A stretch of DNA of 64,000 nucleotides from Candidatus Doudnabacteria bacterium. Lineage in GTDB: Bacteria; Patescibacteriota; Doudnabacteria; UBA920; VMFF01. This document shows positions 26,447 to 50,654 of this stretch, in pieces. The stretch covers positions 453,358 through 517,357 of the forward strand of contig JAQBQP010000002.1 of NCBI GenBank assembly GCA_028286905.1. Reading direction: 5' to 3'. The position numbers were made by a program, and so were the translations under genes. The notes beneath the pieces were generated by a model, which was given only the letters and a program-made list of their open reading frames with translations, was not told the origin of the DNA and did no database searches. Position 1 is the stretch's first letter. Every line of letters begins with the position of its first letter.

Positions 26447-26452
26447 AATGTT

Positions 26453-32652: not shown

Positions 32653-32659
32653 GGAATGA

Positions 32660-32738: not shown

Positions 32739-32759
32739 TTACAGCTTCTGGCCGAGGCT

Positions 32760-33278: not shown

Positions 33279-33346
33279 TTTTATACCCTCTTGTTGAATT
33301 GTGGACTATTTTATGAACAATCACAAAATACCATATTTAATGACAT

Positions 33347-33964: not shown

Positions 33965-33990
33965 TTTAAAAACTAATTCTTTAGCGGTGT

Positions 33991-34365: not shown

Positions 34366-34416
34366 GATTTTATAATATCAAAAAAACATCACTCCTACGA
34401 GTGATGTTTTAGATTA

Positions 34417-34893: not shown

Positions 34894-34937
34894 ATATTTT
34901 TTTATTAGTTATAAATTCATTATACCATATCCACTAT

Positions 34938-36575
34938 TTAGTGCGCTGCTGCAGGTTGCTCTAAAGTCTCTACATTTTTTTCTTTTGGAAGTTTAACAGA
35001 AATCAATAAAGCAAAAAGTATAAAGACAATGCCGTAGGTTAGAACGGCCTTATTCGCTTTAACAGTCGCCTCATGGCTGATGCTAATTATTTCATTTGTA
35101 ACATTTTGCGGTGTCCCTGCCCCAAGGTTAGCGCCTGAGCCAAATTCAATATTTGAACTTTGCTGGACGACTGCCTGGCTTATTGCCGGCTTCATTTCTG
35201 ATGATAAAACGTTACTAGAATTTACACCCGCAGCCAGGTTTGAAGATATGGTGGTAAGCAAAATAGCTCCGAGAATTGCTGAACCCAAAGTTTGCCCCAA
35301 GGTTCTTATTGTACTTGTTACTCCTGAAGCCTCGCCTGCCTGCTGGGCAGAAACAGCTGAAAGAGTTAGATTGCTAGTTTGAGCCATCATTAATCCCATG
35401 CCCATACCAAATAAAGCGAAACCGGGGGCCAAGACCCACGGATTTGCACCAACGTGCAAGCTTTGTCGCAAAACAATAAATCCTAAAACATCAAATAAAA
35501 TACCAATTTGAATTATTCTCTTTGGCGAAATATATTTGCTGACCCAAGCAGACAACGGTGCAGCAATCAAAATAACTGCGGTCATAGGAATCATAGCAAT
35601 GCCGGTGTGCACCGGATCAAGTTTTAAAACTGATTGAAAATAAACAGGCACAGAAAAACTTAAACCTGCTTGACCTAACGCTAGCACTGCAGAGACTGTA
35701 GAACCTACCACAAACGGAGAGTTTTTAAAAAGTTTTAAAGAAACCAACGGAGTTCTACCTTCACGTTCATGCGCTATTTCCCAAACTATAAAAAGTGCCA
35801 ATATTATTATTCCAAGCAGTATGAATACTGGCGTCATTGATAAGCTTCCGAAGCTTAGAGCTGTGGATCCAAGAGTAAATATTTCTTTTGCTTTCCACCA
35901 GCCATAGGTTGAAGCTTCTATCGCACCAAATACGACGAAAAACATTCCTGAAGCAGATAATAGTACTCCCATAAAATCTAAGTCCGACTTCTCATCTGTA
36001 TCCCGAGATTCTTTTATAAACCATGCTCCTATCACCAGCATTGCAGCGATAAAAATATTAATTCGAAAAGCCCATCTCCAGCTATAAGCAGTTGCCAACC
36101 ATCCGCCAATAACTGGTCCAAGCGCTGCCGCCGCCGCGACTATTCCGCCCCAGACACCAAACGCAATTTGACGATCCCTGCCTTCATAACTGGTTCTTAG
36201 CAATGATGCCGTAGCGGGTAACATAAGCGCTGCTCCAATTCCTTCAATTATAGCTTCGCCAATAATCATTGTCCCAACGGTATGGCTAATTGAGGTAATA
36301 AAGGAACCGACCGCAAAAATAACCGCGCCATAAGCAAACATTTTTTTACGTCCAAATAAATCGCCAAGACGGCCGCCGGTAATGGTAAAAGCGGCAAGCA
36401 TCAAAGAGTAGGCTGTTATAACCCATTGAATTTTTTGAATGGTGGTATGCAAATCGCCGATTATAGTCCTTAGCGTAACATTAAGGATGGTTGTATCTAG
36501 AATAATAATAGTAAGGGCAAGGCTCATTACTAATAATGGAATCCATTTCTTGAACCCGGTGTTTTGAGTTGTCAT
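34938..36575 (-). CDS. MFS transporter, DHA2 (EmrB/QacA-like, 14-TM) drug:H+ antiporter family
   Basis: 545 aa with about 14 TM helices and an MFS motif A (GRLGDLFGRKK). Confidence 0.7.
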   Translation of the reverse strand: MTTQNTGFKKWIPLLVMSLALTIIILDTTILNVTLRTIIGDLHTTIQKIQWVITAYSLMLAAFTITGGRLGDLFGRKKMFAYGAVIFAVGSFITSISHTVGTMIIGEAIIEGIGAALMLPATASLLRTSYEGRDRQIAFGVWGGIVAAAAALGPVIGGWLATAYSWRWAFRINIFIAAMLVIGAWFIKESRDTDEKSDLDFMGVLLSASGMFFVVFGAIEASTYGWWKAKEIFTLGSTALSFGSLSMTPVFILLGIIILALFIVWEIAHEREGRTPLVSLKLFKNSPFVVGSTVSAVLALGQAGLSFSVPVYFQSVLKLDPVHTGIAMIPMTAVILIAAPLSAWVSKYISPKRIIQIGILFDVLGFIVLRQSLHVGANPWVLAPGFALFGMGMGLMMAQTSNLTLSAVSAQQAGEASGVTSTIRTLGQTLGSAILGAILLTTISSNLAAGVNSSNVLSSEMKPAISQAVVQQSSNIEFGSGANLGAGTPQNVTNEIISISHEATVKANKAVLTYGIVFILFALLISVKLPKEKNVETLEQPAAAH

Positions 36576-36577
36576 AG

Positions 36578-37009
36578 TTATACGGGAAAATTATTATTTA
36601 ATTCTTTTAGCAACTCTAAAAGTTGTTTTTGTTTAGCTACACTCAATTTAGAAAAAGCTTTGTTCAAACCAGACTCACTGTCCCCCATTGGAAATTTGCT
36701 GAGCAACTGAGTTCCTTTTTTGGTAATTACCAGATTAAGATTCCTACGATCTTTTTTATCCGGCTTTCGCAAAAGATACTTTTCGTCTTCCAAAACATCA
36801 ACTAAGGGAACCAACGAAGGGGGCTGCATACTAAAAGTCTTAGCCATTTCTTTGATTGTAATTGGTTTGGACTTAATTAAAACCAAAATGCCGTATTGCA
36901 ATGGCGTTACGCTTATCTTGGCTGCAGAAAAGCGCTTCTCCGCATCGGCTTTAGCGGTCTTAACCAATTGATACAACAATTGTTTTAGAGGATTTGATTT
37001 GAATATCAT
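36578..37009 (-). CDS. MarR-family transcriptional regulator
   Basis: Winged HTH of the MarR class, 143 aa. Its stop abuts the MFS gene start, so an efflux regulator-transporter pair is likely. Confidence 0.7.
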   Translation of the reverse strand: MIFKSNPLKQLLYQLVKTAKADAEKRFSAAKISVTPLQYGILVLIKSKPITIKEMAKTFSMQPPSLVPLVDVLEDEKYLLRKPDKKDRRNLNLVITKKGTQLLSKFPMGDSESGLNKAFSKLSVAKQKQLLELLKELNNNFPV

Positions 37010-37189
37010 TCAATAATAATAAGGTACCTAATCATTACTGTCAAGTTACTTGGCAAGCATGCAGTTTTCATAACAAAAACTAAAAGCGTAGGCCAAGATG
37101 AAAGAACCTCCGTCAAAACAAAAGAGCCTCGACAAATGAATGTCGGGCTCTTTTCGTTAGCGCATCATGCGCAATTAGAAGTTCCTCCT

Positions 37190-37540
37190 TTACCTTAGAA
37201 CCGGCGCCGGCAACCCGCGGCCCCGAGCGTACCGCCGCGCAAAGAACATACACAGCGGATTAATCGTCCGAACACTGAGGCTCACCCCAAGTACTAAACC
37301 AACCACGGTGACCACCAGCTCCCGCTGCCACGGGATGGGCATTCTCACCAACACCGCTACCGCCATCGAGGTGAACAACGCGACCAGCCCGATGAACGAT
37401 ATGACCATACCCATGATGATTCGGAAGAAGAACGCTTTCTCAACGTACGCTACTCCCGCCATCGATGCCCCAAAGAGAGCCACGAACGCAAAAAAAACAG
37501 GCAACAGGACCAACTCCCACTGGATTAAAAAGCTTTGCAT
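37190..37540 (-). CDS. small membrane protein on a GC-rich insert
   Basis: GC-rich segment. RBS GGAGG before MQSFLIQW.... Three TM helices. A hairpin with T-run follows downstream at about 37140-37170. Confidence 0.45.
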   Translation of the reverse strand: MQSFLIQWELVLLPVFFAFVALFGASMAGVAYVEKAFFFRIIMGMVISFIGLVALFTSMAVAVLVRMPIPWQRELVVTVVGLVLGVSLSVRTINPLCMFFARRYARGRGLPAPVLR

Positions 37541-37655
37541 TGAAACCTCCTGTGGAGGACTTGTTACGGGGATAAATAAAAATAGCACTAATAAGTGCTA
37601 TTTGCAAGATCGGAGTTTCGCAGACCTATAAGATAAACTGGAATAACAAAGATCG

Positions 37656-38510
37656 CTAAATCGTATATTCCAATATTTCTTTGCCTTCCAGCAAAGAACT
37701 CAAATCAAACCTTCTACTTTCCTTCAATTCTTTTGGTTCCCCTGAAAGATCACCCGGCTCAACAAACACAGCAAGTTTTCTGTTACGAGAAAACTCAGGT
37801 CCATTTTTAAAATCTTGCTGCCCTTCAGGGTCAACGCCTTCTAATATTCTTTGAACTAAATTAGGATTAGAAAATAATAAGCCTTTTTCTCGATCTGTTC
37901 CGATTAATGCAAGAATAAGGTTCTTAGGCAAAGCAAGTTCGTAAGTCATATTATTCCTTCTCTTCACTGAATCCCGAAAAGACGCCCGCCTAATTATAAT
38001 CATATTAAAAAATGAATTTCCCATTCCAGGATTTATATCTTCATATTTAACGGGGACTACGGCCTTTTCATAACTAATATCATCGACCATCTCCCTCTTT
38101 TCTTTCCCAAACAATCCCTTAGCAGGTATAATCTTTTCTCGCCTATTAGAGACGCTTCTTTGTACGCTCTGGCGAGCAGCGCCAATATATAAAAGTTCTG
38201 CTTCTTTTTCGTCTACTCCTGGAATTATAGGAGGTTCGTCCATGCGAACATTATTTACAACACGTAATTTTGAGAACGATAATACTTTATACACATCATT
38301 AATTAACCTAGTGCATGAATACGGATACTTTCCGGTTTTAATCCCTTCTACTATATCATTAACAATTCCTTTTTCGTTAAATTCTGGAGTAGTTGAAAGT
38401 AACTCTTGAGCTTGCTGATAAGTATGATCTGGAACATCTCCAGCATTAATATTTTTCAGCATTTTTTGAGACTCTTCCCAAGCTTCTTCGGAGCTATATC
38501 TTTCGGGCAT
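37656..38510 (-). CDS. hypothetical protein (284 aa)
   Basis: ORF track. Low GC. Confidence 0.4.
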   Translation of the reverse strand: MPERYSSEEAWEESQKMLKNINAGDVPDHTYQQAQELLSTTPEFNEKGIVNDIVEGIKTGKYPYSCTRLINDVYKVLSFSKLRVVNNVRMDEPPIIPGVDEKEAELLYIGAARQSVQRSVSNRREKIIPAKGLFGKEKREMVDDISYEKAVVPVKYEDINPGMGNSFFNMIIIRRASFRDSVKRRNNMTYELALPKNLILALIGTDREKGLLFSNPNLVQRILEGVDPEGQQDFKNGPEFSRNRKLAVFVEPGDLSGEPKELKESRRFDLSSLLEGKEILEYTI

Positions 38511-38599
38511 AGTATATTTTTAATTAACATTAGCATATCAAAAAATCATCACAATTACGAATAATGAATTCTTGGCGCCGCTATAAGGACTATTAAAAA

Positions 38600-38650
38600 A
38601 AACAGAGGTGATAAAACTAAAAGCGCGGGACCAAGATGTTTGTCCGCGCT
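38600..38650 (-). terminator. rho-independent terminator after the 38671-39099 gene
   Basis: CAGCGCGGACAAACATCTTGGTCCCGCGCTTTT. Confidence 0.5.
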
Positions 38651-38670
38651 GTTTATTTTGTGGCTTCCTC

Positions 38671-39099
38671 CTACATAATGATTCCGCAGTACCCCGTGCT
38701 CGTACCCTCCAGCCACTCCAATCGATAAAGCGGATGGCTCAAAATGAGCTTACCGCTCTCCCTCTCGAAACGGAAAGGGCAGAAACTCAGCTGTTCAACT
38801 GGCCCCCATGTCCCATCCGGATTGAGGCGCTGCACCGGGAAAGTTACATCCTTCTTCGCTATGGAATCCTGGGCCGTCTTCACATCCGGCGACTGGATCA
38901 ACCGATACCAACGATCCTTCGAGCCCCTTGCAACCACTTCTTCGAAAAGATTCATGGGCCAGGGCTTCGAACTATAAAAAGCTCTGCCGCCGCTTGCTTC
39001 ATCAACGACGATGGGATCGACAAGCGGAGCTTCGCAGTTTGCTACCGCGCCCTTCTTCCGATTCCGATACCAGTTGCTAAAGAACAGTAGGACCCGCAT
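38671..39099 (-). CDS. hypothetical protein on a GC-rich insert
   Basis: GC-rich. RBS AAGGGGG before the ATG. A clean rho-independent terminator follows at about 38600-38650. Confidence 0.45.
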   Translation of the reverse strand: MRVLLFFSNWYRNRKKGAVANCEAPLVDPIVVDEASGGRAFYSSKPWPMNLFEEVVARGSKDRWYRLIQSPDVKTAQDSIAKKDVTFPVQRLNPDGTWGPVEQLSFCPFRFERESGKLILSHPLYRLEWLEGTSTGYCGIIM

Positions 39100-39162
39100 A
39101 TTACCCCCTTAGTTGAACCCAAGTGAGAGATAAATAAAATTACCATGGGTAATGGGAATTGT

Positions 39163-39196
39163 CAAAAGCCCACCTCAATTACAAAGTGGGCTTTTG
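39163..39196. repeat. degenerate copy 0 (hairpin only)
   Basis: CAAAAGCCCACCTCAATTACAAAGTGGGCTTTTG has the same CTCAATTAC loop as copies 1 and 2. Confidence 0.4.
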
Positions 39197-39288
39197 ACAC
39201 GAGTTGTACAGAAAAACTATCCACAAAACACCATATAAAATGATGCGCTCTGGGTAGACGCTCTCGAAGTTTCGAGAGCGCACCGAAT

Positions 39289-39615
39289 TCACGAGATCTT
39301 GAAATATTGATGCCATAACGCCTCTCCTTCCTGATCCAGTGGCAGTCGCAGAATCAGCGGTGGATGATTCCCTGGCAGGATGGTTTCGTCCATGACCAGG
39401 TGTCCGTTTTCCAGATAGAAGCGCCGGGCAACGATCGTACTCTGAACGACCAGAACTCTGGTATGGCGATCCACTATCGCCTGCTTGCTTTCGCCGTGAT
39501 ACACCACGGAGTAGTGCTCTTTCTGGGCGGCGTCCCAAGCCAATGCCCCCAAAACAAATGCGTGCAAGGTCAGAACCAAGAACGCGGCACAGAGTTCTTT
39601 GCAAATCATTTTCAT
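39289..39615 (-). CDS. small secreted protein on a GC-rich insert
   Basis: Signal peptide MKMICKELCAAFLVLTLHAFVLGALA. GC-rich. A strong hairpin follows downstream at about 39245-39280. Confidence 0.4.
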   Translation of the reverse strand: MKMICKELCAAFLVLTLHAFVLGALAWDAAQKEHYSVVYHGESKQAIVDRHTRVLVVQSTIVARRFYLENGHLVMDETILPGNHPPLILRLPLDQEGEALWHQYFKIS

Positions 39616-39720
39616 CTTCAGCTCCAGATCAACGTGATTTAGAATCCTCCTCGAAACCGACCCAATTGCCGGATTAAATAAAATACCACGATTAGTGGTA
39701 TTCGTCAAAGAATTGGAAAA

Positions 39721-40452
39721 TTACCGCTGCCCTTTAAACAAAGCAACGTGAAATCCAAAATCTTTCCCATACTCACCAATAAATATTGGCACGTAAATTA
39801 AATCTAAAGAAAGTCCTAGCTTCTTTTTATCAGATTTATTAAACGCTTTAAAATTAGTCAGTTTTTGGATATCTACATTAGCCCGAGCCAAATCTTTTTT
39901 ATAGAACGTTTTCCCGGTAAATTCAAAAAGATCTGCTAATCCATTTTGAGTCGGAAATGGCAATTCGAGCGCGCTTAACTTTTCCATTATATATTTTACC
40001 GTATATATTTTTGAATTTCTTTCTAATTCGATAGAAAAAAAGTTATCAGGATTAAAACTTGATACGGAACCCTTTCTTGGCATAATAAGAACTTTATTTA
40101 GTTTAAAATATTTAGCTAAATTTATATGTGCTTTATTAGGTTTGGTCACAATAATTCCGCAGTCGTTACTCTTACTTTTGGTATTATGGAACTCTATAAT
40201 AAAACCTGATTTCTTAAATGTCTTTTTTAGAGATTTCGCCAATTTATGCTCGTAGGTTTTGCCTGGCAAATCAAAATTCCTGTTAAGATCTGCTTCGATG
40301 AATCTTAAATTCTTCTCTACAGCTTTCGGATTTGCGATTAAAGCTTCTAAATTTTTATATTCTTTCCTTTGAAGGCTTTTCACTACAGACACGCCGGTCT
40401 TTTCATTACCATGAGTTCCGCCAAGTATCAAGATTTTATTTTCTATTTTCAT
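39721..40452 (-). CDS. succinylglutamate desuccinylase/aspartoacylase-family zinc hydrolase
   Basis: The GGTHGNE motif is the GxHGNE zinc-binding hallmark of the AstE/AspA family. Start set to MKIENKIL.... Confidence 0.6.
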   Translation of the reverse strand: MKIENKILILGGTHGNEKTGVSVVKSLQRKEYKNLEALIANPKAVEKNLRFIEADLNRNFDLPGKTYEHKLAKSLKKTFKKSGFIIEFHNTKSKSNDCGIIVTKPNKAHINLAKYFKLNKVLIMPRKGSVSSFNPDNFFSIELERNSKIYTVKYIMEKLSALELPFPTQNGLADLFEFTGKTFYKKDLARANVDIQKLTNFKAFNKSDKKKLGLSLDLIYVPIFIGEYGKDFGFHVALFKGQR

Positions 40453-40459
40453 AGCAAAA

Positions 40460-40530
40460 GCATAACAAAAAACCACCTCAATTACGAGGTGGGCTTTTGG
40501 CAGGGATTGAGGGAGCAAGTTAGAATAATA
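40460..40530 (-). repeat. cassette-boundary repeat, copy 1 (full)
   Basis: GCATAACAAAAAA, then hairpin CCACCTCAATTACGAGGTGG, then GCTTTTGGCAGGGATTGAGGGAGCAAGTTAGAAT. Confidence 0.6.
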
Positions 40531-40624
40531 TTAACAAATAAGTGCCGTTGACTTTTACCACAAAACATCATAAAATATCATATTCCTGGCGAACGCCTTG
40601 AACACACTCCAACGGAGGCAACAA

Positions 40625-40981
40625 ATGAAGATGCATATGCCGCGTCTCACCACGATTCTTTCCACCCTTCTCCTGACGGGTTGCGCGGGTTTCTCACGTT
40701 CCTGCTCTTCGTGGAATGCGAGAAACTTCGCAAGCGACTGGGTCGTCGTGCAGTACAAGTTCGACGGATCACCCATCAACTGCTGGACTCTCAAGGGCAC
40801 CAGCGTTTCGAACGAGGGAGGGTCTGACGGCATCTACTGGAAGGACGGGACAAGCGGCCATCTGGTTCACATCTCGGGATGGTACAACCGAGTCCAGGTC
40901 GCCAACAACCAGTTCGCGCAAGCCGCGACGCTGATGGGGGTAGACGCAAGCAAGTGCGCAAACGGCAAATACCAACCGTAA
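40625..40981 (+). CDS. lipoprotein on a GC-rich insert
   Basis: Lipobox LLLTGC. RBS GGAGG. Its own TTGACT-17-TAAAAT promoter sits at about 40548-40576. A terminator follows at about 40990-41040. Confidence 0.5.
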   Translation: MKMHMPRLTTILSTLLLTGCAGFSRSCSSWNARNFASDWVVVQYKFDGSPINCWTLKGTSVSNEGGSDGIYWKDGTSGHLVHISGWYNRVQVANNQFAQAATLMGVDASKCANGKYQP

Positions 40982-41091
40982 CGTTTGTGCCGAGCACCAA
41001 AACCACCAGGTTCTTATTGAGCCTGGTGGTGTTTTATTTAAAATAAGCGATGTGGGTTGCTAGAAGAAGTTAGAACTTCAATTGAATATTC

Positions 41092-41544
41092 CTAGTTTTT
41101 GAGTTCCTCGGCCAATCCAATAAGAATTCCTTCGGGCCCACGAATATAACAAAGCCTATAAGAATTCTCATATTGAACCACATCGCCTACGAGTTGGGCG
41201 CCTAACTTTTTAAGCCGTTCAACCAGCTCATCAATGTCACTTACAGTGAACATTGCTCTCAAATAACCAAGAGCATTCACTGGAGCATTTCGATGGTCGG
41301 CAATGACAGGAGGAGTAAAAAAACGCGAAAGCTCAATTCGACTGTGGTTGTCGGGTGTGACCATCATCGCTACCTCAACGTTCTGGTCACCTAATCCAGT
41401 AACACGTCCCGCCCACTCTCCTTCTACAATAGCGCGACCTTCAAGCTTTAAACCAAGCTCGGTAAAAAAAGAAATAACTTCATCGAGGGATTCCACAACG
41501 ATGCCGATGTTGTCCATGCGTAGCACTTTACTTTTTTCTGTCAT
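41092..41544 (-). CDS. VOC-family (glyoxalase/bleomycin-resistance fold) protein
   Basis: Paired beta-alpha-beta-beta-beta modules, 150 aa. Confidence 0.6.
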   Translation of the reverse strand: MTEKSKVLRMDNIGIVVESLDEVISFFTELGLKLEGRAIVEGEWAGRVTGLGDQNVEVAMMVTPDNHSRIELSRFFTPPVIADHRNAPVNALGYLRAMFTVSDIDELVERLKKLGAQLVGDVVQYENSYRLCYIRGPEGILIGLAEELKN

Positions 41545-41582
41545 TTTATTCCGTTATTATTTTAACTGTTGATACCTAAAAA

Positions 41583-41655
41583 GCATAACAAAAAACCAGC
41601 TCCATTACGAGGTGGCTTTGGCACGGGCTATGGGAGCAAGTTGGAACTAGAATTG
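41583..41655 (-). repeat. cassette-boundary repeat, copy 2 (full)
   Basis: GCATAACAAAAAA, then hairpin CCAGCTCCATTACGAGGTGG, then CTTTGGCACGGGCTATGGGAGCAAGTTGGAAC. Confidence 0.6.
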
Positions 41656-41689
41656 CTCAAAAAAACCACCAAATTTAGACAGTTATTTT

Positions 41690-42310
41690 TTACAACAGGA
41701 TTAGAATAAGAGCTATGATCGCCATTCCGAAATCCTCAATAAGCGTTACGTAGGTAAGTGGGACTTTGAGAAACGTTCCTAAACAAGCGCACATAAAAGG
41801 TTCTCGCCTTGCAAACTTAATCGCGACTCCTAATCCGCTAAAAACCATTACAACAAATTCCGCCCACAACAGCCACATCGAATGCAATCCTGATAACATA
41901 GCAAAACCAAAACCTAATTCGATGAACGGATATATGTACCCATATCCGAACCACTTTTTAGCCAAAAGATCATAGGTAGAATAACCTTCAGCAAAACCTT
42001 TTACGTCCATCAATTTAAATCCACCGAAGACTAAAAAGAATCCAGTCATAAAATTCAGAAGAAAACCTGTCAAAGAAATTCGTCCGTTCCAAGCAGTAAT
42101 TACCGAAGCAATAAATATCAGAAGAATGATCACTATCAAAGGTTGATAACTTTTCCAAGTGATCACACCTAAACCTTGTTCAGAGGTTGTGTGCGCCATT
42201 GGTTTGATCTGATCCTTTAAGACAAGCGTCATTCCACATTTTGGACAGCGGCCTAGTTGATCTGAAACAATATCAAGGTGCATCGGGCAAGTATAAATTT
42301 GATTATCCAT
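41690..42310 (-). CDS. membrane protein with N-terminal heavy-metal-binding zinc-ribbon (CPxH...CPxCGM) and DoxX/MauE-like TM domain
   Basis: CPMHLDIVSDQLGRCPKCGMTL matches the HMBD/YHS-like metal-binding ribbon. Four or five TM helices follow. Confidence 0.5.
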   Translation of the reverse strand: MDNQIYTCPMHLDIVSDQLGRCPKCGMTLVLKDQIKPMAHTTSEQGLGVITWKSYQPLIVIILLIFIASVITAWNGRISLTGFLLNFMTGFFLVFGGFKLMDVKGFAEGYSTYDLLAKKWFGYGYIYPFIELGFGFAMLSGLHSMWLLWAEFVVMVFSGLGVAIKFARREPFMCACLGTFLKVPLTYVTLIEDFGMAIIALILILL

Positions 42311-42390
42311 AATTTTGACCTTTCTTAATAAAGTTTCATTATTTCAACAAAATTTTCTTATCATAAGACGATTATACCATACACTAAAAT

Positions 42391-42422
42391 TACGGGCTGT
42401 GGGAGCAAGTTAGAACTGAAAT
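42391..42422 (-). repeat. cassette-boundary repeat, copy 3 (truncated; no hairpin)
   Basis: TACGGGCTGTGGGAGCAAGTTAGAACTGAAAT. Confidence 0.5.
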
Positions 42423-42440
42423 AAGACAAGAATGCTCGTT

Positions 42441-43631
42441 TTAATGCGGATGGTTATGCAGTGGTTTATCGTTTGGGTCGTGCTTCATCCGAGTCAAAAA
42501 AGTCACAGCCAACACAGTCGATATCGGAACTGCAAGTATTAAAGAGATACTTCCTACCAAAGTCCTAACTATTTCTTCCATCACGAACTCGCTATTCAAA
42601 GTAACCCACAATGGTTGAGCCGTATTTAAAACAAATAGCAAAAAAAGCGGTAACGAAGCGCCGGCATATGCAAGCACCAATGTATTCACCAAAGAAGCTA
42701 TGTGCTCTTTCCCGACAGATATACCACCTTGGTATAATCTCTTCTTTTCGATTTGCGGATGCACTTTACGTATTTCATCAACAGAAGCCACTTGGCTTGT
42801 GGTAACATCATCCAGTACTCCCAGAGTTCCAATAATTATTCCACTTAAAAGTAACCCCTGAAGATTTAAAACACTTCCATAGCCTGCTTGGAGATAATAC
42901 GCTTCTTCCGAGCCAAGCCCAAATAACTTTGCTAAGTGCACAAAAAGTGCAGCCATCCCAATTGAAATTACCAATGTTATCAAAGTACTTAAAACAGCAA
43001 TGCTAATACGCTTATTAAAACCATGTGCTAAATAAATAGAACCAACAGATATTACGATGGAGCCGATTAGGGTTACCAATAACGGATTACTGCCATGCAA
43101 GATGGATGGAACTATGAATTTTAATAAAATAAAGATTGTGAAAACTAAACCTAGAATTGATGTGAAGCCACGTAATCTGCCAAAGAAAATAACTACTGCT
43201 AAAAATATTACGATCATTATGCCCAATGCTGGCAAACGATATCTGTCGACAACCGCATATTCGGTTTGTCCTTGATTCATATTTTTAGTTACAACAACTA
43301 TTTCGCCTTTAACAAGCCATTGTTTATACGTATCTGGATTTTCATTAATTCGATAATTAATGACTTTATCTTTTTCTGGACCGTCTAAAATTTGTAGTTT
43401 AGAATCTTGCTCTCGGGCAGGGATCGTCTGACTGCTGTGGGTTATTTCGCTGTTCCATCGCTCATCTTTAGTTATTTCAAGAACTTTGGCCTTTTGAAAA
43501 CTTTGTGGCACTACTGCTCCGGGCTCTACCACCTCTAAGGGAATATTGCCAACACTTTGATTGTCTTGTGCTTTGGACAATAAAGGCACTGAGGATAAAA
43601 GTATACAGATAATTAAAAACAGTTTTTTCAT
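42441..43631 (-). CDS. YibE/F-like polytopic membrane protein
   Basis: Signal peptide, then an extracellular N-domain, then seven to eight TM helices. Confidence 0.45.
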   Translation of the reverse strand: MKKLFLIICILLSSVPLLSKAQDNQSVGNIPLEVVEPGAVVPQSFQKAKVLEITKDERWNSEITHSSQTIPAREQDSKLQILDGPEKDKVINYRINENPDTYKQWLVKGEIVVVTKNMNQGQTEYAVVDRYRLPALGIMIVIFLAVVIFFGRLRGFTSILGLVFTIFILLKFIVPSILHGSNPLLVTLIGSIVISVGSIYLAHGFNKRISIAVLSTLITLVISIGMAALFVHLAKLFGLGSEEAYYLQAGYGSVLNLQGLLLSGIIIGTLGVLDDVTTSQVASVDEIRKVHPQIEKKRLYQGGISVGKEHIASLVNTLVLAYAGASLPLFLLFVLNTAQPLWVTLNSEFVMEEIVRTLVGSISLILAVPISTVLAVTFLTRMKHDPNDKPLHNHPH

Positions 43632-43710
43632 ATATTAGGATTATAGCAATAAAATACTGTAAGCCCCCAAGATATAACACTCAGGGGCTCACAAGTGATC
43701 AGTCTGACGA

Positions 43711-44103
43711 TCAGCAATCTGCCGAAGCCAAAGCGCCGTTCTGAAGCTGAATCTGCTCCAACGGCGACATCGCCAGTAGCTCGCGGGTTGGCGCTGCCAC
43801 AGAACCGCAGCAGTTGTAGAGACCGAAAGCGACGCCGAACTCAGCTTCGCAGATACTGCGAGCGATATCCGTTCCAAGCAGACGGGTGATCTGCTTACCC
43901 AACGCTGTGTTCGGGTCCTGAGGATCCAGGATCTTCGCAGCAGACGCCTTCGTCCTTGCTGCGAGCTCGCCCAGATAAGCGACGCCGAGCGGCAGGTCAC
44001 GCTGAAACGCTTCGAAGAGTGCGCTACGCATCTGACCCTCACTTGCGGTATCCAAATCAACACCGCGCTCGTCCAGCACAGACACGATCGACTGATAAGA
44101 CAT
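43711..44103 (-). CDS. hypothetical protein on a GC-rich insert
   Basis: GC-rich. RBS GGAGGA. It lies 64 nt downstream of the CooC-like gene on the same strand. Confidence 0.45.
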   Translation of the reverse strand: MSYQSIVSVLDERGVDLDTASEGQMRSALFEAFQRDLPLGVAYLGELAARTKASAAKILDPQDPNTALGKQITRLLGTDIARSICEAEFGVAFGLYNCCGSVAAPTRELLAMSPLEQIQLQNGALASADC

Positions 44104-44167
44104 ACATCCTCCGATGATATTCTGAGTACCAGGGCCAAACAGAATGTTTGGAACTGGTTACAAAATA

Positions 44168-45103
44168 TCAATCTCTCAAAACAAAATCTGGGTCGACTTG
44201 TTTTCGCAAATCCTTACCAATAGAAACATTTCCCCAACTTTCCGAATTCTTTATATGAAACTCTACTGTCTGTCTGTAAAACTTCGTCCAATCTTTTTTT
44301 GACTCTCCTACTATTTGGATTAATTTTTTCAGCGCCTGGATATTTTGCTCCTCCAGAAAATTAATCGATATAACCTCTCCTCTTTCTGAATTTTTAACGA
44401 AATCAGATTGGCCAAAATAAACCAACAAGTCTTCACCTAGTTTGTTTTGCAAAAATTGTAAGTCTGAATTATCAGAAATTTTATTTCCAATTGCGACAAC
44501 CTTTACATCGTAATCTTTCGCAAACTTTTTATACTGTTCAAATACTGATACTGATTTTAAGGTAGGCTCAACGACAACAAAAGTAATATCGAATTTTGTA
44601 AACATACCGGAAGCAAAGGTGTCCGCACCCGCGGTCATATCCACGACAACATATTCATCTTCTCTGTCCAACATATGGTTTAACAATAATTCCACTGCGC
44701 CCACTTTGGAGTGATAACATTTAACTCCCAAGTCCTCTTCGCTAAACTCACCGACAGCCATAAATCTTAAGCTACCAGCTGAAATAGAAAACTTTTCAAA
44801 TAGTGGGTTCGTTTCTTTTAACCTTAATAAATTAGATCCTGCGCCAGGTGGGGAAGTTTTTATCATTTCTGAGGCTGATTCTATTCGGGGATTAGAACCT
44901 CTTAAGTACTCCTTTATCTCTGGAAGATACGTACCCAAAGACAAGACTTCAATTAATGGCAACCCTAAAGATCCTTTCATGTGCTGATTAATGTCGGCCT
45001 CAATTGCAAGGACAGGACAATTATTCTGTTGTAAGTATCGGCAGAAAAGTGTGCTGGTAGTGGTTTTCCCACTACCGCCTTTCCCCACAAAAGCTATTTT
45101 CAT
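44168..45103 (-). CDS. CooC/MinD-family P-loop ATPase (metallochaperone-like)
   Basis: Deviant Walker A KIAFVGKGGSGKTT. VVDMTAGADTFASG resembles the CooC switch region. Start set to MKIAFVG.... Confidence 0.55.
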   Translation of the reverse strand: MKIAFVGKGGSGKTTTSTLFCRYLQQNNCPVLAIEADINQHMKGSLGLPLIEVLSLGTYLPEIKEYLRGSNPRIESASEMIKTSPPGAGSNLLRLKETNPLFEKFSISAGSLRFMAVGEFSEEDLGVKCYHSKVGAVELLLNHMLDREDEYVVVDMTAGADTFASGMFTKFDITFVVVEPTLKSVSVFEQYKKFAKDYDVKVVAIGNKISDNSDLQFLQNKLGEDLLVYFGQSDFVKNSERGEVISINFLEEQNIQALKKLIQIVGESKKDWTKFYRQTVEFHIKNSESWGNVSIGKDLRKQVDPDFVLRD

Positions 45104-45166
45104 AAATGCAAATGATTTGCATTTACTATATACGAGGTCAGGAACAAATGCAAGTGACTTGCATTT
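45104..45166. promoter_or_regulatory. two 21-bp perfect palindromes (AAATGCAAATGATTTGCATTT and AAATGCAAGTGACTTGCATTT) in the divergent promoter
   Basis: Read directly in the 84-bp intergenic region between the CooC-like and Fur-family genes. Positions are within about 2 nt. Confidence 0.5.
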
Positions 45167-45187
45167 AGCTAAACTTTGTGCCATACT

Positions 45188-45595
45188 ATGATTATGGAAA
45201 ACAAAGAGCTGGTAAAATCTTACGGCTTAAAAGCAACCCCCACTCGCCTTTCAGTATTAGCGGCGCTACAGAAATATTCAAAACCTGTGAGTGTATTTGA
45301 TATATTAAAAAACTTGAACAAAAATACTGATCAAACCACAGTATACCGAATACTAAATGTATTCGTTGAGAAAGGTATGATAAAAAAAATTGACCTAAAA
45401 AAAGATTTTTCATTTTTTGAAATCAATGAAGGAAAACACCATCACCATTTGGTGTGTCAAAGTTGTTCCAAAATAAAAGAGATTGAATCTTGCGATATCT
45501 CTGCCATAGAGAAACAAGTGTTAAAAAAAAGTGGTTTCAAAAGTATTGATGAGCATGCTTTAGAGTTTTACGGACTTTGCGAAAACTGCGCATAA
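45188..45595 (+). CDS. Fur-family metalloregulator
   Basis: wHTH plus a metal-site region HHHHLVCQSC...C. The track ORF starts at a TTG; MIMENKEL is the likelier start. Confidence 0.7.
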   Translation: MIMENKELVKSYGLKATPTRLSVLAALQKYSKPVSVFDILKNLNKNTDQTTVYRILNVFVEKGMIKKIDLKKDFSFFEINEGKHHHHLVCQSCSKIKEIESCDISAIEKQVLKKSGFKSIDEHALEFYGLCENCA

Positions 45596-45615
45596 AATTT
45601 TTATAATAGACTATC

Positions 45616-45681
45616 AAAAAATCTCCACCCTATTCGGGTGGAGATTTTTTGGCACGGGCTGTGGGAGGTTAGAACTGAAAT
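45616..45681 (-). repeat. cassette-boundary repeat, copy 4
   Basis: Hairpin AAAAAATCTCCACCCTATTCGGGTGGAGATTTTTT, then GGCACGGGCTGTGGGAGGTTAGAACTGAAAT. Confidence 0.55.
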
Positions 45682-45726
45682 GACAAAACAAAACGGAAAG
45701 GTGCCTTTTGACAGCTGTAATTAAAT

Positions 45727-46155
45727 ATGTCATTGTGTGACATTGGCATTCACCCTCTTACCTTTATTTCCATGCCTAGCAGAGAAGAACTAGCGGCACA
45801 GGTGATATGGAACAGCGGTGGTTCCGGTCTCGGTATTTGCCGAGTCGCTAACGCCCTGATACGGGCGATGGACCGGCCGGGACCTAACAATCCCGACTAC
45901 CCTTCCATCGTAGCTGTGTCCGATCCACCAGAGAAGTACACGGACGAGGAACTGACGCTGATCGTAGAATTCGCTCAACGTGCAACGGCCAAACACGACG
46001 AGATGTTTCGCTTCCGTCGTGGCGCAAACCTCATACTGTTCGACAAGGAGGAGTGGAACGGAAGAACTGTGTGGATGCGAAAGCGTCTAACATGGGAGTA
46101 CGGTCCGATGTTCTCACCGACGTTAGTGGAAGCAATTGCGTCCATGGATCGGTAA
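45727..46155 (+). CDS. hypothetical protein on a GC-rich insert
   Basis: GC-rich, 142 aa. Confidence 0.45.
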   Translation: MSLCDIGIHPLTFISMPSREELAAQVIWNSGGSGLGICRVANALIRAMDRPGPNNPDYPSIVAVSDPPEKYTDEELTLIVEFAQRATAKHDEMFRFRRGANLILFDKEEWNGRTVWMRKRLTWEYGPMFSPTLVEAIASMDR

Positions 46156-46270
46156 AACCACAAATCACAGGAGGCTGTAGTTCACGTCATTCTTGGCGTG
46201 AGGTCCCGGGGAACAATAGCATGTTCCCCTTTCCTCTAAGCTCATCAATACTGGTGATCTTAGAGAAAAT

Positions 46271-46330
46271 AACCCCCCTCGAAAGGGTGTTTTTTGATAC
46301 GGGCTATGGGAGCAAGTTGGAACCGAAATA
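46271..46330 (-). repeat. cassette-boundary repeat, copy 5
   Basis: Plus-strand read: hairpin, then GATACGGGCTATGGGAGCAAGTTGGAACCGAAAT. It sits between convergent genes. Confidence 0.55.
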
Positions 46331-46331
46331 A

Positions 46332-47015
46332 CTAAATACCCTGTCGCTTTACTGCTTTAAGTATAAAAAAGCCTGGGTATTTTTTTCCATCAATTTGTTC
46401 CGCTGATGGGTCCCATTGTTCGTCAAATAATTGAACATCGAAATTTTTAAAAAGAAAGTCGTTTAAGTACTCGTTCATGGTATGGGAAGGTTCCTTTACT
46501 AGAATAGTATTGTTCAAAATATTGGAATCAACGATTTGTTGCTCAAAATAATCTGCTGTATTATCTTTCTTTTCAAAGTATTGTCTAAATGGATGCGTTA
46601 CCAAATACATCATTACTCCGCCAGGTTTCAACACTCTGTGTACTTCTTTAAAAACTGGTTTCAGGTCAGAAGAAGTCATAATTGCATATTTGGAAAGTAC
46701 AACATCAAAAAAGTTTTCCTCAAAAGGGAGACTTTCAAAAAGACCTGTTCTAATGTCAGCGTCAGGCATTCTGGATTGGGCTAAAGCTACCATTTCTTTG
46801 GATGCATCAATTCCGTATACCGCAGCCCCCAATTCTTTATAGTAAAGTAAATCTAGACCATCGCCACAAGCCACATCCAGTAATTTCATTCCAGGCTTAA
46901 CAAAATCTAAATAACTATAAAACAACTTCCTGTTTAAATTATTACTGTTTTCACCGGTGTCATGAACCTCGGAAAACTTCTTAGCAAAATTATTATATTG
47001 TGTAGATAATTCCAT
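46332..47015 (-). CDS. class I SAM-dependent methyltransferase
   Basis: Motif I LLDVACGDGLD. Start set to MELSTQYNN..., 6 nt after the GTTATGCT motif. Confidence 0.7.
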   Translation of the reverse strand: MELSTQYNNFAKKFSEVHDTGENSNNLNRKLFYSYLDFVKPGMKLLDVACGDGLDLLYYKELGAAVYGIDASKEMVALAQSRMPDADIRTGLFESLPFEENFFDVVLSKYAIMTSSDLKPVFKEVHRVLKPGGVMMYLVTHPFRQYFEKKDNTADYFEQQIVDSNILNNTILVKEPSHTMNEYLNDFLFKNFDVQLFDEQWDPSAEQIDGKKYPGFFILKAVKRQGI

Positions 47016-47022
47016 AACCCTA

Positions 47023-47077
47023 GCATAACAAAAAATCCCCACTACGACGAGTGAGGAGTTTTTGGCACGGGGCTTGC
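47023..47077 (-). repeat. cassette-boundary repeat, copy A (nearest tRNA-Trp)
   Basis: Minus-sense read: GCAAGCCCCGTGCCAAAA, then a hairpin, then TTTTTTGTTATGCT. The segment GCCCCGTGCCAAAAA is identical to the tRNA-Trp 3' end plus flank. Confidence 0.6.
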
Positions 47078-47206
47078 AGCTCCTTACAGTCGCTGCATTC
47101 CCTCTTCGTTTTGCTAACGCAAAACAAATCAAAGAAGGTCAGGAATCGAGTCGTATTCCATAGCTACCAAATCAAAAATACTCCATCCTGATGGATGGAG
47201 TATTTT

Positions 47207-47280
47207 TGGCACGGGGCGTAGGAATCGAACCTACGTAAGCGGTTTTGGAGACCGCCGTAATACCACTATACGAGCCCCGC
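47207..47280 (-). tRNA. tRNA-Trp (anticodon CCA), CCA end encoded
   Basis: Hand-folded cloverleaf. Acceptor GCGGGGC/GCCCCGT. Anticodon stem GCGGT/ACCGC with loop CTCCAAA. T-arm GTAGG-TTCGATT-CCTAC. A terminator hairpin follows the 3' end. Confidence 0.8.
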
Positions 47281-47350
47281 ATGATCACACTTAAATTATA
47301 CACTACTTAAGAAAAACAGCTTCCGAGCATATAGCGCGCAAGCTGTTTAA

Positions 47351-47599: not shown

Positions 47600-47656
47600 A
47601 AGTGAATGCCGTAGGTCAAATTAACTACTAAAATTTAACACAAATTCCCAAAACTG

Positions 47657-48124
47657 TCAAAGACTATGAGGCTCGCTTCGTGCCTTATAGACTCTCCAAG
47701 AAGCCTTACCTCTCACTATAATCCAATTAACAGGCTGATCCCATTCTTGTCTTATAAGCTTAAGATCTGAAAATTTTGTACTATCAATAATACCTACTTT
47801 TACCCAATTAGAGGGAATTTTAGAAAGAAAACGATCATACCACCCAGCGCCTTTTCCATGCCTGGTACCATAAACATCAAACATTGTTCCTGGAATAAAA
47901 ACCGATACCGGGCCATTCTTAAATCTAGCTAGACAATTATCTGCCCACTCAAATGGATCACTATTTTTATCTTTTGGAATGACAATGAGATTGTTTTTGT
48001 TTATTTCTAAAGGAAATGATAAATCGTTATAATCAACTTCACTTTTTGTGGGTACGTATAAAACAAACCCCGCGCATTGGGAAAATATTTCTTGTAATTC
48101 TTTTAATGCGGCTACTTCTTCCAT
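47657..48124 (-). CDS. 5-formyltetrahydrofolate cyclo-ligase family protein
   Basis: GTRHGKGAGWYDRFL matches the 5-FCL G-x-G-x-G-(Y/W)YDR motif. It is short, at 155 aa. Confidence 0.55.
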   Translation of the reverse strand: MEEVAALKELQEIFSQCAGFVLYVPTKSEVDYNDLSFPLEINKNNLIVIPKDKNSDPFEWADNCLARFKNGPVSVFIPGTMFDVYGTRHGKGAGWYDRFLSKIPSNWVKVGIIDSTKFSDLKLIRQEWDQPVNWIIVRGKASWRVYKARSEPHSL

Positions 48125-48194
48125 AGATGTATTTTAAAAAAAGATGCTGGAGCGGTGAAACTCCAGCATCGGTGGCAATTGCCCGGCGTTTTGA

Positions 48195-49205
48195 TTAGTG
48201 CTCCATGTGTTTGAGAACCTTCACGTATAACTCCTCCACGACCTTCTCTTGCGCTTTGCCAATCTTGGCGTAGTGATCCAGCCCTGGCGCAGAGTTGACT
48301 TCGAGAACCCAAAATGTACTTGGTTTCTGGCTGATGTCGCCCTCAATCATGAGATCAACGCCGCAAAGGCGCAACCCCATATCACGAGTAAGCTTCACGG
48401 CCAGTTTCCTGAACTCCGGATGCACCTTATCGGTTACATCAACAGAATCGCCCCCAGTGGATAGATTGGCGTTGTCCAAAAGGTAGACCCTCTGACCCTT
48501 TGCAGGGACCGAACGTAAGCTAAGCCCTTGATGGAGCAGCTTTATCGGAATTCGCGGGTCGTCCGCCTTGATTTGGGTGTCTCGACTTGAAGCGACAAAC
48601 TGCCTTTGCTTGATCTTCAAGAGCCGTTCGACTGTGGATTTTCCATCGCCGACAATATTGAGCGGGATGCGCTCGTAGGCAGAGATCACTTTTTTGTCGA
48701 GTACGACCAGGCGATAATCCACCCCAAGTACAGGCTGCTGAACGAGCGCTATTCGATCGCGTTTGAAAACAGCGCGAATAGCTTTGTAGAACTCTCGCTT
48801 GTTGTGGACTAGCGAAACACCGGCGCCTTGGCTGCCGCTGTTCGGCTTCACGATGACCGGAAAACCAATCTTACGTGCGTGCCTATATGCGGCGTCCATA
48901 TTTCTGCGAGGGGCGCCAATCGCTCGGCCCCACTGTTCAGAAAAAAAGGTCTTTGAGCCTGGCACGATCGGGTAACCCATCTCTTTCATGAAGAAGTTCG
49001 AGTAGTCCTTGTCACGAGCGATTTCTGACCCTCCCATTGGGTTCAGATCGAGAGTGTTATAGCGGAAGTAGGAGTGCTGACCACTTTTGAAAGTGATCTG
49101 GCCGACGATTTCCCATTCCGGCTCCATAAGAACAGTCGCCCCAATACGAGGAGCGATCTTCTGCAACATCCTTCCGAGCACTAATGATTCTTTCTTCTTT
49201 TTCAT
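48195..49205 (-). CDS. ATP-grasp ligase (RimK/alpha-L-glutamate-ligase-like)
   Basis: ATP-grasp fold pattern (VIVKPNSGSQGAGV... DLMIE... LEVNSAPGL). Its GC is somewhat above the backbone. Confidence 0.6.
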   Translation of the reverse strand: MKKKKESLVLGRMLQKIAPRIGATVLMEPEWEIVGQITFKSGQHSYFRYNTLDLNPMGGSEIARDKDYSNFFMKEMGYPIVPGSKTFFSEQWGRAIGAPRRNMDAAYRHARKIGFPVIVKPNSGSQGAGVSLVHNKREFYKAIRAVFKRDRIALVQQPVLGVDYRLVVLDKKVISAYERIPLNIVGDGKSTVERLLKIKQRQFVASSRDTQIKADDPRIPIKLLHQGLSLRSVPAKGQRVYLLDNANLSTGGDSVDVTDKVHPEFRKLAVKLTRDMGLRLCGVDLMIEGDISQKPSTFWVLEVNSAPGLDHYAKIGKAQEKVVEELYVKVLKHMEH

Positions 49206-49370
49206 CGTATCTCCTATGACTTGGGCTAAGGAAGCAGAGACTGAAATTTCAGCTTTTTCTGGTTCAAAAACTAATGCAAAGATAGCACTTTATTAGCTTT
49301 TAATCAACTTAATTAGATACCTCTTTTCTAAGATATATGTTATATTTTTAGCGAATCAAAACAGAAATCT

Positions 49371-50645: not shown

Positions 50646-50654
50646 CCCCAAATT

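Follow-up and report, generated by a model that had tools for sequence, protein, structure and literature searches.

The window analysed here is a 64-kb stretch of contig JAQBQP010000002.1 (GCA_028286905.1, 453,358-517,357, forward strand; positions are counted from the window start), in which a tRNA-Trp gene is followed by an array of small gene units that we refer to as cassettes. The source metagenome-assembled genome (MAG) is annotated as Candidatus Doudnabacteria of the Candidate Phyla Radiation (CPR; Patescibacteria), the 540-kb contig carries the NCBI proteins MDB4940326-336 (locus tags JWO40_751-762), and the same window sequence is present in an independent Logan assembly of run SRR13312974. 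The GC background is ~37%, with many short GC-rich stretches. Along the minus strand lie S2, EF-Ts, a TPR protein, tRNA-Tyr, tRNA-Thr(GGU), a 4.8-kb block, tRNA-Thr(UGU), rpmG (L33) and tRNA-Trp, from which the array continues. Gene contents were assigned with Pfam and NCBIfam, tRNAs with ARAGORN and Rfam, and backbone synteny by tblastx. The comparison drew on four other Doudnabacteria with the L33-tRNA-Trp pair (L008, L016, L017 and L018) and on L009, a 1,074-bp JGI metagenome contig from a different sample.

The anchor of the array, tRNA-Trp(CCA) (47207-47280, minus strand; ARAGORN, and 59.7 bits in Rfam), differs from its counterpart in L008 by one mismatch. The 3' end reads ..CCTACGCCCCGT|GCCA, with the CCA encoded in the gene, and next to the terminus ..CCTACGCCCCGTGCCA come an A-run, a strong hairpin and a T-run. 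The adjoining non-coding unit 0 (47067-47206, minus; fold z = -5.8; aligned with L008) consists, in order, of the A-run, the terminator hairpin (47179-47202), the T-run, a ~75-nt stretch conserved in L008 and a small hairpin ending ..AAGCCCCGT. It leads into copy A (47059-47073, minus), in which 15 nt of the tRNA-Trp 3' end are repeated directly and without mismatch; the string GCCCCGTGCCAAAAA has two exact occurrences, one at the tRNA terminus (47203-47217) and the other at copy A, against ~0.14 expected by chance. Copy A is followed by its own hairpin (47036-47057), by TTTTTTGTTATGCT and then by the ATG of a methyltransferase gene at 47015. The initial annotation, made from the letters of the window alone, had noticed this recurrence and placed it about 110 nt beyond the tRNA; the repeat itself stands, but it starts 133 nt past the tRNA end. 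No 3'-end repeats were found for the other three tRNAs in the window, tRNA-Trp alone having them. The ~75-nt stretch 3' of the tRNA-Trp terminator (window 47090-47166, minus; L008 ~2020-2095, minus; GTAGCTATGGAATAYGAC .. GGGAATGCA) contains a hairpin whose place is kept in both genomes while its sequence differs, and could represent a leader, a small RNA or what is left of a short open reading frame (ORF; MEYD..).

Further along the array, the five boundary elements of the initial annotation were refound at 46.30, 45.65, 42.40, 41.62 and 40.50 kb, using an nhmmer profile of the repeat core (TTATTTCAGTTCYAACTTGCTCCCAYAGCCCGTGCCA) that was scanned over the whole window. All five are strong matches (27-40 bits) on the minus strand between 40.5 and 46.3 kb, and the profile found nothing comparable in the remaining 57 kb. 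A weak match lies 3' of the VOC gene (41067-41082, E = 0.4), and another, probably due to chance, just upstream of a GC-rich ATP-grasp gene (49213-49236, minus, E ~ 1). The core has the form TTCYAACTTGCTCCC(AY)AGCCCGT at 46299-46322, 42392-42415 and 41623-41646, with looser copies at 45654-45681 and 40502-40528. Within the window, strong copies are thus confined to 6 kb of a single strand, which is not the dispersed pattern of repetitive extragenic palindromic (REP) sequences or bacterial interspersed mosaic elements (BIMEs), and 7/7 repeat copies share the orientation of the tRNA. Repeats of the 3' end of the target gene stand at the far boundaries of the units, matching in 15/15 nt at copy A and in 9-10 nt at cores c4 and c2.

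Outward from the tRNA, and always on the minus strand, core c5 with ATCA (46295-46330) is followed by a hairpin (46272-46288), core c4 with GCCA (45650-45681; fold z = -6.6) by a hairpin at 45622-45644, core c3 (42392-42423) by AATT and no hairpin, and core c2 with GCCA (41619-41654) by a hairpin (41596-41615) and TTTTTTGTTATGCT. Beyond these lie a degenerate core, AAGTTCTAACTTCTTCTAGCAACCCAC (41052-41082), followed by ATCG and a hairpin at 41002-41030; core c1, ending ..CAATCCCT and continued by GCCA (40498-40528; fold z = -4.2), a hairpin (40473-40492) and TTTTTTGTTATGCT; and a relic at 39163-39215 that had been taken for a hairpin only and in fact still holds a partial core, ..CAACTCGT|GTCA. 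A hairpin with a T-run is found 3' of the tRNA, copy A, c5, c4, c2 and c1, at the 41.0-kb boundary and at the 39.17-kb relic. The succession of GCCA, AAA, hairpin and T-run that had been described for each core therefore holds for most of them, c5 (ATCA) and c3 (AATT, no hairpin) departing from it, and the ~35-nt core is shared except that c4 is without its TTG. Degeneracy increases only roughly with distance from the tRNA, the bit scores outward being 39.9, 32.2, 36.4, 38.8, 7.1, 27.3 and 1.8. A module in which an A-run, a hairpin (loop of the CGTA(A/G) type), TTTTTT(T)GATAT.. and ATG succeed one another is also present without a core on the minus strand, at 34364-34406 between DinB and a 124-aa gene, beyond the range of the initial annotation, and at 38517-38566 in the distal array before a 284-aa ORF, so the terminator-promoter part is more widespread than the core.

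The match between core and tRNA-Trp is limited to the last 9-11 nt of the core, and the proposal that the repeat mimics the tRNA 3' end is borne out for these positions. The 5' 24 nt of the core, which contain a T-loop-like GTTCYAAC, resemble the T-arm of tRNA-Trp weakly. The tRNA-Trp of L017 gives the closest alignment to this part, with a score that is matched by 24 of 5000 shuffles and lies hardly above that of other tRNAs; descent from a tRNA 3' half is thus possible. A full-length tRNA equal to the 35-nt core, the suggested check for the original target, was not found in the material compared, the best partial match being the tRNA-Trp allele of L016/L017, and the idea that the core is simply the 3' end of a full tRNA was rejected. 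The tail of c1, ..CCCTGCCAAAAG, resembles the tRNA-Trp end of L016-L018 and not that of the window, which hints at exchange between lineages. In DNA folds the core is unpaired, pairing at every boundary being limited to the downstream terminator hairpin, and the complete boundary segments of c5, c3 and c2 are no more stably folded than shuffled sequences (z = -0.6, +0.4 and -0.3). Searches of the boundaries with Rfam at E <= 1 returned no family and no partial tRNA match, and relaxed ARAGORN gave implausible calls only.

The units measure 0.55-3.3 kb, hold one to four genes and each end in the ~35-nt repeat; the gene contents initially listed were corroborated by Pfam. Cassette 1 (47066-46299) encodes an S-adenosylmethionine (SAM)-dependent methyltransferase (46332-47015, minus; Methyltransf_11, E = 9e-24). 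Cassette 2 (46298-45654) holds a GC-rich 142-aa ORF in the opposite orientation (45727-46155, plus), whose GC content at third codon positions (GC3) is 0.58 and whose likely start, M16, would give a protein of 127 aa. This ORF has 25 homologues with 43-98% identity. No relative of the protein was found in viral contigs, and the homologue loci L010-L013, L019 and L020 have neither cores nor tRNA linkage. One of these, in a GC-rich (57%) MAG labelled Saccharibacteria (L020, 1800-10735), places the homologue amid ~18 small genes of 94-224 aa, nearly all on one strand, among which no repeat family or tRNA was found. Cassette 3 (42392-45649, minus; delimited by Pfam, nhmmer and a terminator scan) is composite and comprises Fur (45176-45595, plus), a CbiA/CooC-like ATPase (44168-45103, minus), a possible degenerate core at 44130-44157 (minus) seen by eye but not found by nhmmer, a GC-rich 130-aa ORF (43711-44103, minus), a hairpin called by the terminator scan (43657-43694, minus) and YibE/F (42441-43631, minus). 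A 'NucS shadow ORF' match for the 130-aa ORF was discarded, as it lies under the Pfam cut-off and the antisense frame is closed.

Cassette 4 (42391-41623) encodes a membrane protein with HMBD and MauE-like parts (41690-42310, minus; Pfam), and cassette 5 (41622-41052) a VOC/glyoxalase-family protein (41092-41544, minus; Pfam). Over its full length the VOC gene shows 66-71% nucleotide identity to VOC genes on plasmids of Bacillus/Priestia and Rhizobium/Sinorhizobium, which is unusually high for a CPR gene; comparison of the array DNA with plasmids and phages gave no matches beyond this gene and the tRNA itself. Cassette 6 (41051-40502) holds a GC-rich lipoprotein-like ORF (40625-40981, plus; GC3 = 0.73; lipobox LLTGC) with 130 homologous clusters, the best at 60% identity; the Logan contig has no gene call at this ORF, and the NCBI protein accessions continue past it without a gap. 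Cassette 7 (39199-40497, minus; fold z = -4.9) contains an AstE/AspA-family hydrolase (39721-40452, minus; Pfam), a truncated core with hairpin module (39675-39712, minus) that shares 86% identity with the beginning of the third L009 unit, and a GC-rich 108-aa ORF (39289-39615, minus). Distal units with decayed boundaries follow (37190-39198, minus; recognized by GC3 and the repeat families D2/D4/D7), comprising a GC-rich 142-aa ORF (38671-39099), a hairpin with TTTTTTGATATGCT (38517-38566), a 284-aa ORF (37656-38510) and a GC-rich 116-aa membrane ORF (37190-37540), all on the minus strand; none of these three ORFs has a Pfam match.

The GC-rich ORFs have GC3 values of 0.58-0.73, against 0.24-0.40 in their AT-rich neighbours, and a normal coding signature. 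Together with the homologues and the plasmid-like VOC gene, this indicates that the cargo is made up of real genes with diverse origins. GC-rich genes (50-58% GC) are also dotted over this 37-39% GC lineage outside the array, for example at 48195-49205, 51289-52308, 14001-14400 and 32600-33300 in the window, at 5100-6110 in L003 and at 251-1201, 2976-3281 and 6190-6567 in L008, and their high GC is held across species. An ATP-grasp gene beside the 5-formyltetrahydrofolate (5-FTHF) cyclo-ligase gene has ~50% GC in both the window and L003, and the GC-rich ORF after tRNA-Thr(GGU) (51530-51811) shares 47% protein identity with its counterpart in L008. A simple account of the GC-rich genes as recent transfers that have not yet ameliorated does not fit this pattern.

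The L33-tRNA-Trp pair is kept in 4/4 relatives (L008, L016, L017 and L018), and the genes directly 3' of tRNA-Trp differ by lineage. In L008 the upstream synteny is the same and a GrpB-like gene and a GC-rich 316-aa lipoprotein lie downstream; L016 and L017 have MFS transporters, IMPDH and HU, preceded in L017 by tRNA-Cys; and L018 has a PEP-utilising enzyme, S51 peptidases and an ABC protein. The backbone beyond the variable block was assessed in L016, L017 and L018, where the stored locus reaches that far. According to tblastx, gene order common with L016/L017 resumes at MFS 24694-25935, HU 21832-22119, MscS 20411-21100 and YceG 19509-20345, and L018 shares the 119-aa gene of the window at 23758-24117; a 121-aa gene likewise counts among the backbone genes that reappear in these relatives. 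About 21 kb (25.96-47.2 kb) is thus specific to the lineage of the window, the synteny of related genomes being interrupted by the inserted DNA. The part of this block beyond the array (25961-37189, minus; Pfam/NCBIfam and tblastx) has no cores and contains MarR, MFS, DinB, a Pif1/RecD2-like helicase, Bax1-I, MsrB, NRAMP, a NERD nuclease and an M23 peptidase. For the loci anchored on 5-FTHF cyclo-ligase (L003-L007), different tRNAs occupy the position and synteny is lost, and secE-nusG-rplKA was rejected as a far flank, as it does not adjoin rplJ-rplL in the window.

The relatives also inform on the origin of the repeat. The last 21 nt of the tRNA-Trp of L018, which is spelled differently (GATTCCTACACCCCCTGCCAA), recur 411 nt downstream of it and are followed by a hairpin of their own, TTTTTTGTTATGATT and a start codon, forming a counterpart of copy A. 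As the L018 repeat matches the tRNA of L018 itself, the repeat tracks the resident tRNA. In L016/L017, tRNA-Trp is followed by a hairpin and TTTTTTGTTATGCT, and this native flank indicates that the cassette start, of the form RYCA, A-run, hairpin, T-run and TGTTATGCT, copies the native 3' flank of tRNA-Trp.

Some further features of these loci were observed. A conserved tRNA-like element lies 250-300 nt 3' of tRNA-Trp in L008 (~1868-1940, minus) and L018 (~2515-2640, plus) and is missing from the window; it has an acceptor-like stem, a T-arm of the form ACGGG-TGCAAGT-CCCGT and an end ..GGTCCACCA, is directly followed by a consensus TTGACN17TATAAT promoter, and is not called by default ARAGORN or Rfam. 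The interval between tRNA-Thr(GGU) and tRNA-Thr(UGU) is variable too, with 4.8 kb in the window (47600-52397; folate genes, the ATP-grasp gene and two GC-rich ORFs), 0.7 kb in L008 (2613-3316) and ~5 kb with a 1005-aa beta-helix protein in L016 (4952-9901); no tRNA-Thr-end repeats were found in these intervals. Between rpmG and tRNA-Trp, L016 encodes a 217-aa protein with an N-terminal HTH_23 and no recombinase domain (10227-10880, plus).

The exchange of a single cassette can be followed on contig L009, whose protein P0102 is 98% identical to the 142-aa ORF of cassette 2. The match with the window runs from inside core c4 to inside core c5, the cassette being 98.1% identical in its interior and 99.5% in its coding sequence, and its neighbours are different. 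In L009, cassette 2 is preceded by the 3' end of a VOC gene and a VOC-linked core, ..CAATTGAAGTCCTAACTTCTTCTCACAGCCCGT|ATCAAAAAACACCC..; in the window the VOC gene is 5 kb off and cassette 2 is preceded by the methyltransferase. On the other side, past ..CATAGCCCGTGCCA, L009 has a different hairpin and then an unrelated third unit. The homology ends at CCCGT|ATCA towards c5 and, towards c4, after CCCGTGCCA, right past GCCA. The left half of the VOC-linked core is common to the degenerate core of the window at 41052-41082, and at c5 this core substitutes the left part while ATCA and the hairpin remain with the next unit. The junctions thus show the left part of the core going with the upstream gene and RYCA with the hairpin going with the downstream unit, and by alignment the point of exchange is within or at the edge of ..CA(C/T)AGCCCGT. 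Since the core parts split in this manner even though the cargo gene is inverted, the unit is a DNA-level cassette and not a transcript-linked element. The coding sequence of the cassette is more conserved than that of the adjoining VOC gene (2/384 vs 7/179 differences, 99.5% vs 96.1%; Fisher p = 0.006), and the cores diverge far more than the cassette interior between window and L009 (p = 6e-9). This single short contig hence suggests discrete movement of a unit bounded by repeats, and the presence of one unit between different neighbours in a close relative makes the units look like small mobile cassettes without an integrase of their own.

The combined results lead us to regard the array as the probable product of site-specific accretion at the 3' end of tRNA-Trp, in which mini-cassettes without an integrase were stacked and shuffled. 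What the sequences themselves show is how the array is built, that the tail of the repeat is identical to the tRNA end, that all copies share one orientation and that, within the window, the repeat is restricted to this locus. They also show the core-level exchange of a cassette in a near-identical relative and the hypervariable content between conserved flanks. The initial annotation had proposed separately acquired cassettes at a mimic of the tRNA-Trp end and had named beforehand, as an outcome that would speak against this, a common gene order in related genomes with a dispersed repeat. The gene orders differ, the repeat is confined to the locus and the exchange in L009 occurred at the repeat, all in favour of that proposal and of reading the series of copies as tandem acquisition at one hotspot.

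In the proposed mechanism, the 3' side of tRNA-Trp would serve as an integration hotspot that accumulates very small cassettes in tandem. Each cassette starts with RYCA, usually GCCA, rebuilding the discriminator base and the CCA of the tRNA, and continues with the A-run, a bidirectional terminator hairpin and the T-run with the extended -10-like TGTTATGCT, which together represent a copy of the native tRNA-Trp flank. Cargo in either orientation follows, and the cassette closes with a ~24-nt conserved arm (..AGTTCYAACTTGCTCCCAY) and AGCCCGT, mimicking the last bases of the acceptor stem. Recombination at or beside ..CCCGT|RYCA would join a circular cassette to the tRNA end, or one core to another, which would permit insertion at the tRNA, excision and re-ordering. 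We infer both the enzyme and the circular intermediates, and likewise that insertion takes place specifically at the tRNA rather than at any core; the recombinase would be supplied in trans from a gene outside the 64 kb.

Several points weigh against this explanation. Among the ~75 ORFs of the window, none was recognized as a tyrosine or serine recombinase, an integrase, a resolvase, a transposase or a HUH protein, as the initial annotation had already remarked, and none of the relatives has a recombinase adjoining tRNA-Trp; the cognate recombinase expected of tRNA-targeted elements is thus absent from the 64 kb, and it is from this distribution that an enzyme acting in trans is proposed. The core has neither dyad symmetry nor a fold, unlike usual recombinase core sites. 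Searches of further genomes, metagenomes and viral contigs also failed to recover it: an exact core 20-mer had no matches in GTDB representative genomes, IMG/VR or JGI metagenome contigs, and a degenerate core 29-mer had none in metagenome contigs, a collection evidently without L009. Two viral-contig matches to a core 25-mer both fall within a phage coding region and were judged to be chance. The system may accordingly be very young, very local or already inactive. Mobility is read from one 1,074-bp contig, a chimera being unlikely, since two misjoins at repeats of <=15 nt would have to be assumed. Finally, the ~35-nt cores could also allow occasional RecA-dependent exchange.

The last point leads to an alternative in which no dedicated recombinase is involved and the tRNA-Trp 3' end, terminator and promoter form a lineage-specific intergenic module with an insulator or promoter role, spread by segmental duplication, gene conversion and RecA exchange, possibly after natural transformation. 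Enclosed by A- and T-runs, the hairpins are indeed good intrinsic terminators, TGTTATGCT resembles an extended -10 and lies 7-50 nt ahead of start codons, and the same terminator-promoter motif is native to tRNA-Trp of L016/L017 and occurs without a core at the two sites named above; the region also lies between conserved flanks, like the 'minimal mobile elements' exchanged by transformation. Yet core orientation follows the tRNA even where the cargo gene is inverted, which does not fit a gene-linked untranslated region, and the breaks in L009 are confined to the terminal ~10 nt of the core or to its edge instead of being scattered along the module. A 35-nt repeat is short for efficient homologous exchange, and the repeat is not found in the other intergenic regions of the window. 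We therefore consider this module account unlikely, if the least easily set aside.

Decay of successive integrative elements at tRNA-Trp, phage-like or of the type of integrative and mobilizable elements (IMEs) and once equipped with an integrase, is also improbable, though not negligibly so. The units would then be debris, re-ordered by homologous recombination between att repeats. Tandem accretion followed by loss of the integrase is documented (PMC5704250; PMC3146451), no integrase is left in the window, and the 21-kb block holds a Pif1/RecD2/TraA-like helicase and a NERD nuclease that are possible element remnants. Such a history would need at least six successive elements, each pared down to a single gene, with that gene and its terminator and promoter modules all left intact, and the conserved 24-nt arm implies that all of them belonged to a single family. 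It also has to contend with L009, in which the cassette moved as a precise core-bounded unit with a coding sequence 99.5% identical. Elsewhere in the window we observed a TraD/VirD4-like coupling-protein homologue (5276-7786, minus) and, at 30973-32880 (minus), the Pif1/RecD2-type helicase, which shows weak TraA-relaxase similarity; both genes may be remnants of a conjugative or mobilisable element.

The initial annotation had offered an integron-like system with attC sites as its own alternative. The array shares with integrons an ordered row of small, mixed, mostly single-gene cassettes with hairpin-associated recombination sites at one fixed point, and clusters of attC sites lacking integron integrases (CALINs) are likewise without a nearby integrase. 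An attC site is an imperfect palindrome (R''-L''..L'-R') that is recombined as a folded single strand, with the crossover in the R' box (G|TTRRRY). The core of the array is, in contrast, a non-palindromic 35-nt sequence that ends in a tRNA-end mimic, does not fold and has no paired R''/R' boxes. The L009 breaks lie upstream of the hairpin, between ..AGCCCGT and RYCA, ~45 nt upstream of the sole GTTATGC-like motif and not in a GTTRRRY box. From the unfolded core and the position of the break it follows that the sites are not integron attC. The units moreover carry terminator and promoter-like sequences of their own, and the fixed point is a tRNA gene instead of an attI beside intI; rpmG and tRNA-Trp hold the first position where IntI with attI and Pc would be expected, and the window, which encodes no IntI in its 64 kb, gave no Phage_integrase match. 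A canonical integron or CALIN that happens to adjoin a tRNA gene is thus highly improbable. An assembly or binning artefact that stitched GC-rich foreign fragments into an AT-rich contig, as the sharp GC alternation over a few hundred bases might suggest, deserves still less credence, given that the independent Logan assembly agrees, that L009 from another sample has a GC-rich unit with the same AT-rich boundary elements and that other Doudnabacteria have GC-rich genes at the same positions.

If the cassette explanation is taken a step further, the array might, quite tentatively, represent an undescribed gene-capture platform of the CPR that works like an integron and is built differently. The 3' end of an essential tRNA gene would be its fixed point and a non-palindromic 35-nt sequence that closes with a tRNA-end mimic its cassette site, the cassettes would bring a new CCA end and a terminator for the tRNA together with a promoter of their own, and a recombinase unrelated to IntI, with its gene elsewhere, would move single genes, some of them from distant, GC-richer donors. 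CPR bacteria have tiny genomes and are host-dependent, little is known about how they acquire genes, and our literature searches found no integron or cassette system described for them. The stacking and shuffling of single accessory genes beside a tRNA would be a concrete and testable route of gene gain in this group, with a cargo that includes genes for metal homeostasis, a methyltransferase and a VOC enzyme as well as small membrane or secreted proteins, and would imply that a tRNA attachment site can become the centre of an integron-like organisation with no attC hairpins. Probes for circles, alternative junctions and the recombinase are available in the 35-nt core and the ..CCCGT|GCCA junction.

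Other known systems with small mobile modules or tRNA-derived repeats resemble the array in part. Xer-dependent dif sites are 28 bp long, with two inverted 11-bp arms and a 6-bp spacer, and flank their modules in alternating orientation; the core has no dyad symmetry, and every site of the array has the same orientation. Prochlorococcus islands, reportedly described by Coleman and colleagues in 2006, are hypervariable and carry several partial tRNA 3' copies beside that tRNA, read as scars of repeated integration; these islands span tens of kb with plain tRNA fragments and are not known to have an extra arm or a single-gene periodicity. At the E. coli tyrT/rtT locus, the tRNA 3' end is repeated downstream in short non-coding tandem units that result from unequal crossing-over. 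Copy A is superficially like these repeats, but tyrT units resemble one another over their entire length and are not known to carry foreign genes, and Rfam returned no rtT or other family at the array boundaries. A tyrT-type origin was rejected, as the array units carry unrelated protein genes and their likeness is confined to the boundaries.

Cis-mobilizable elements (CIMEs; Pavlovic et al. 2004; reviewed in PMC5704250) are integrase-less like the cassettes, have attL/attR-type repeats, pile up at the 3' end of their target gene and can be moved by a trans-acting recombinase. They are decayed integrative and conjugative elements (ICEs) or IMEs of several kb from Firmicutes and not rows of single genes with terminator-promoter modules (PMC5704250), and our literature searches found no CIME described in CPR. 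The closest published parallel is provided by the ssrA islands of Dehalococcoides (McMurdie et al. 2011, PMC3146451), in which a conserved motif without a match in the target gene stands ahead of the direct repeat. Both systems have tandem units 3' of a small stable-RNA gene, each bounded by a repeat of the 3' end of that gene with a conserved non-target motif just upstream, and both are hypervariable between strains. Some ssrA units lack an integration module, and their mobilisation is presumed to occur in cis; the array units likewise have no such module. The islands target tmRNA, with a 20-bp repeat and a crossover in the T-loop, in place of tRNA-Trp, and their units range from kb to tens of kb, most with a six-gene integration module that includes a CcrB-like serine recombinase; those of the array measure 0.55-3.3 kb, and none encodes a recombinase. 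The array is set apart from the accretion arrays described so far by its small and regular units, the terminator-promoter module carried by each unit, and the phylum of its host.

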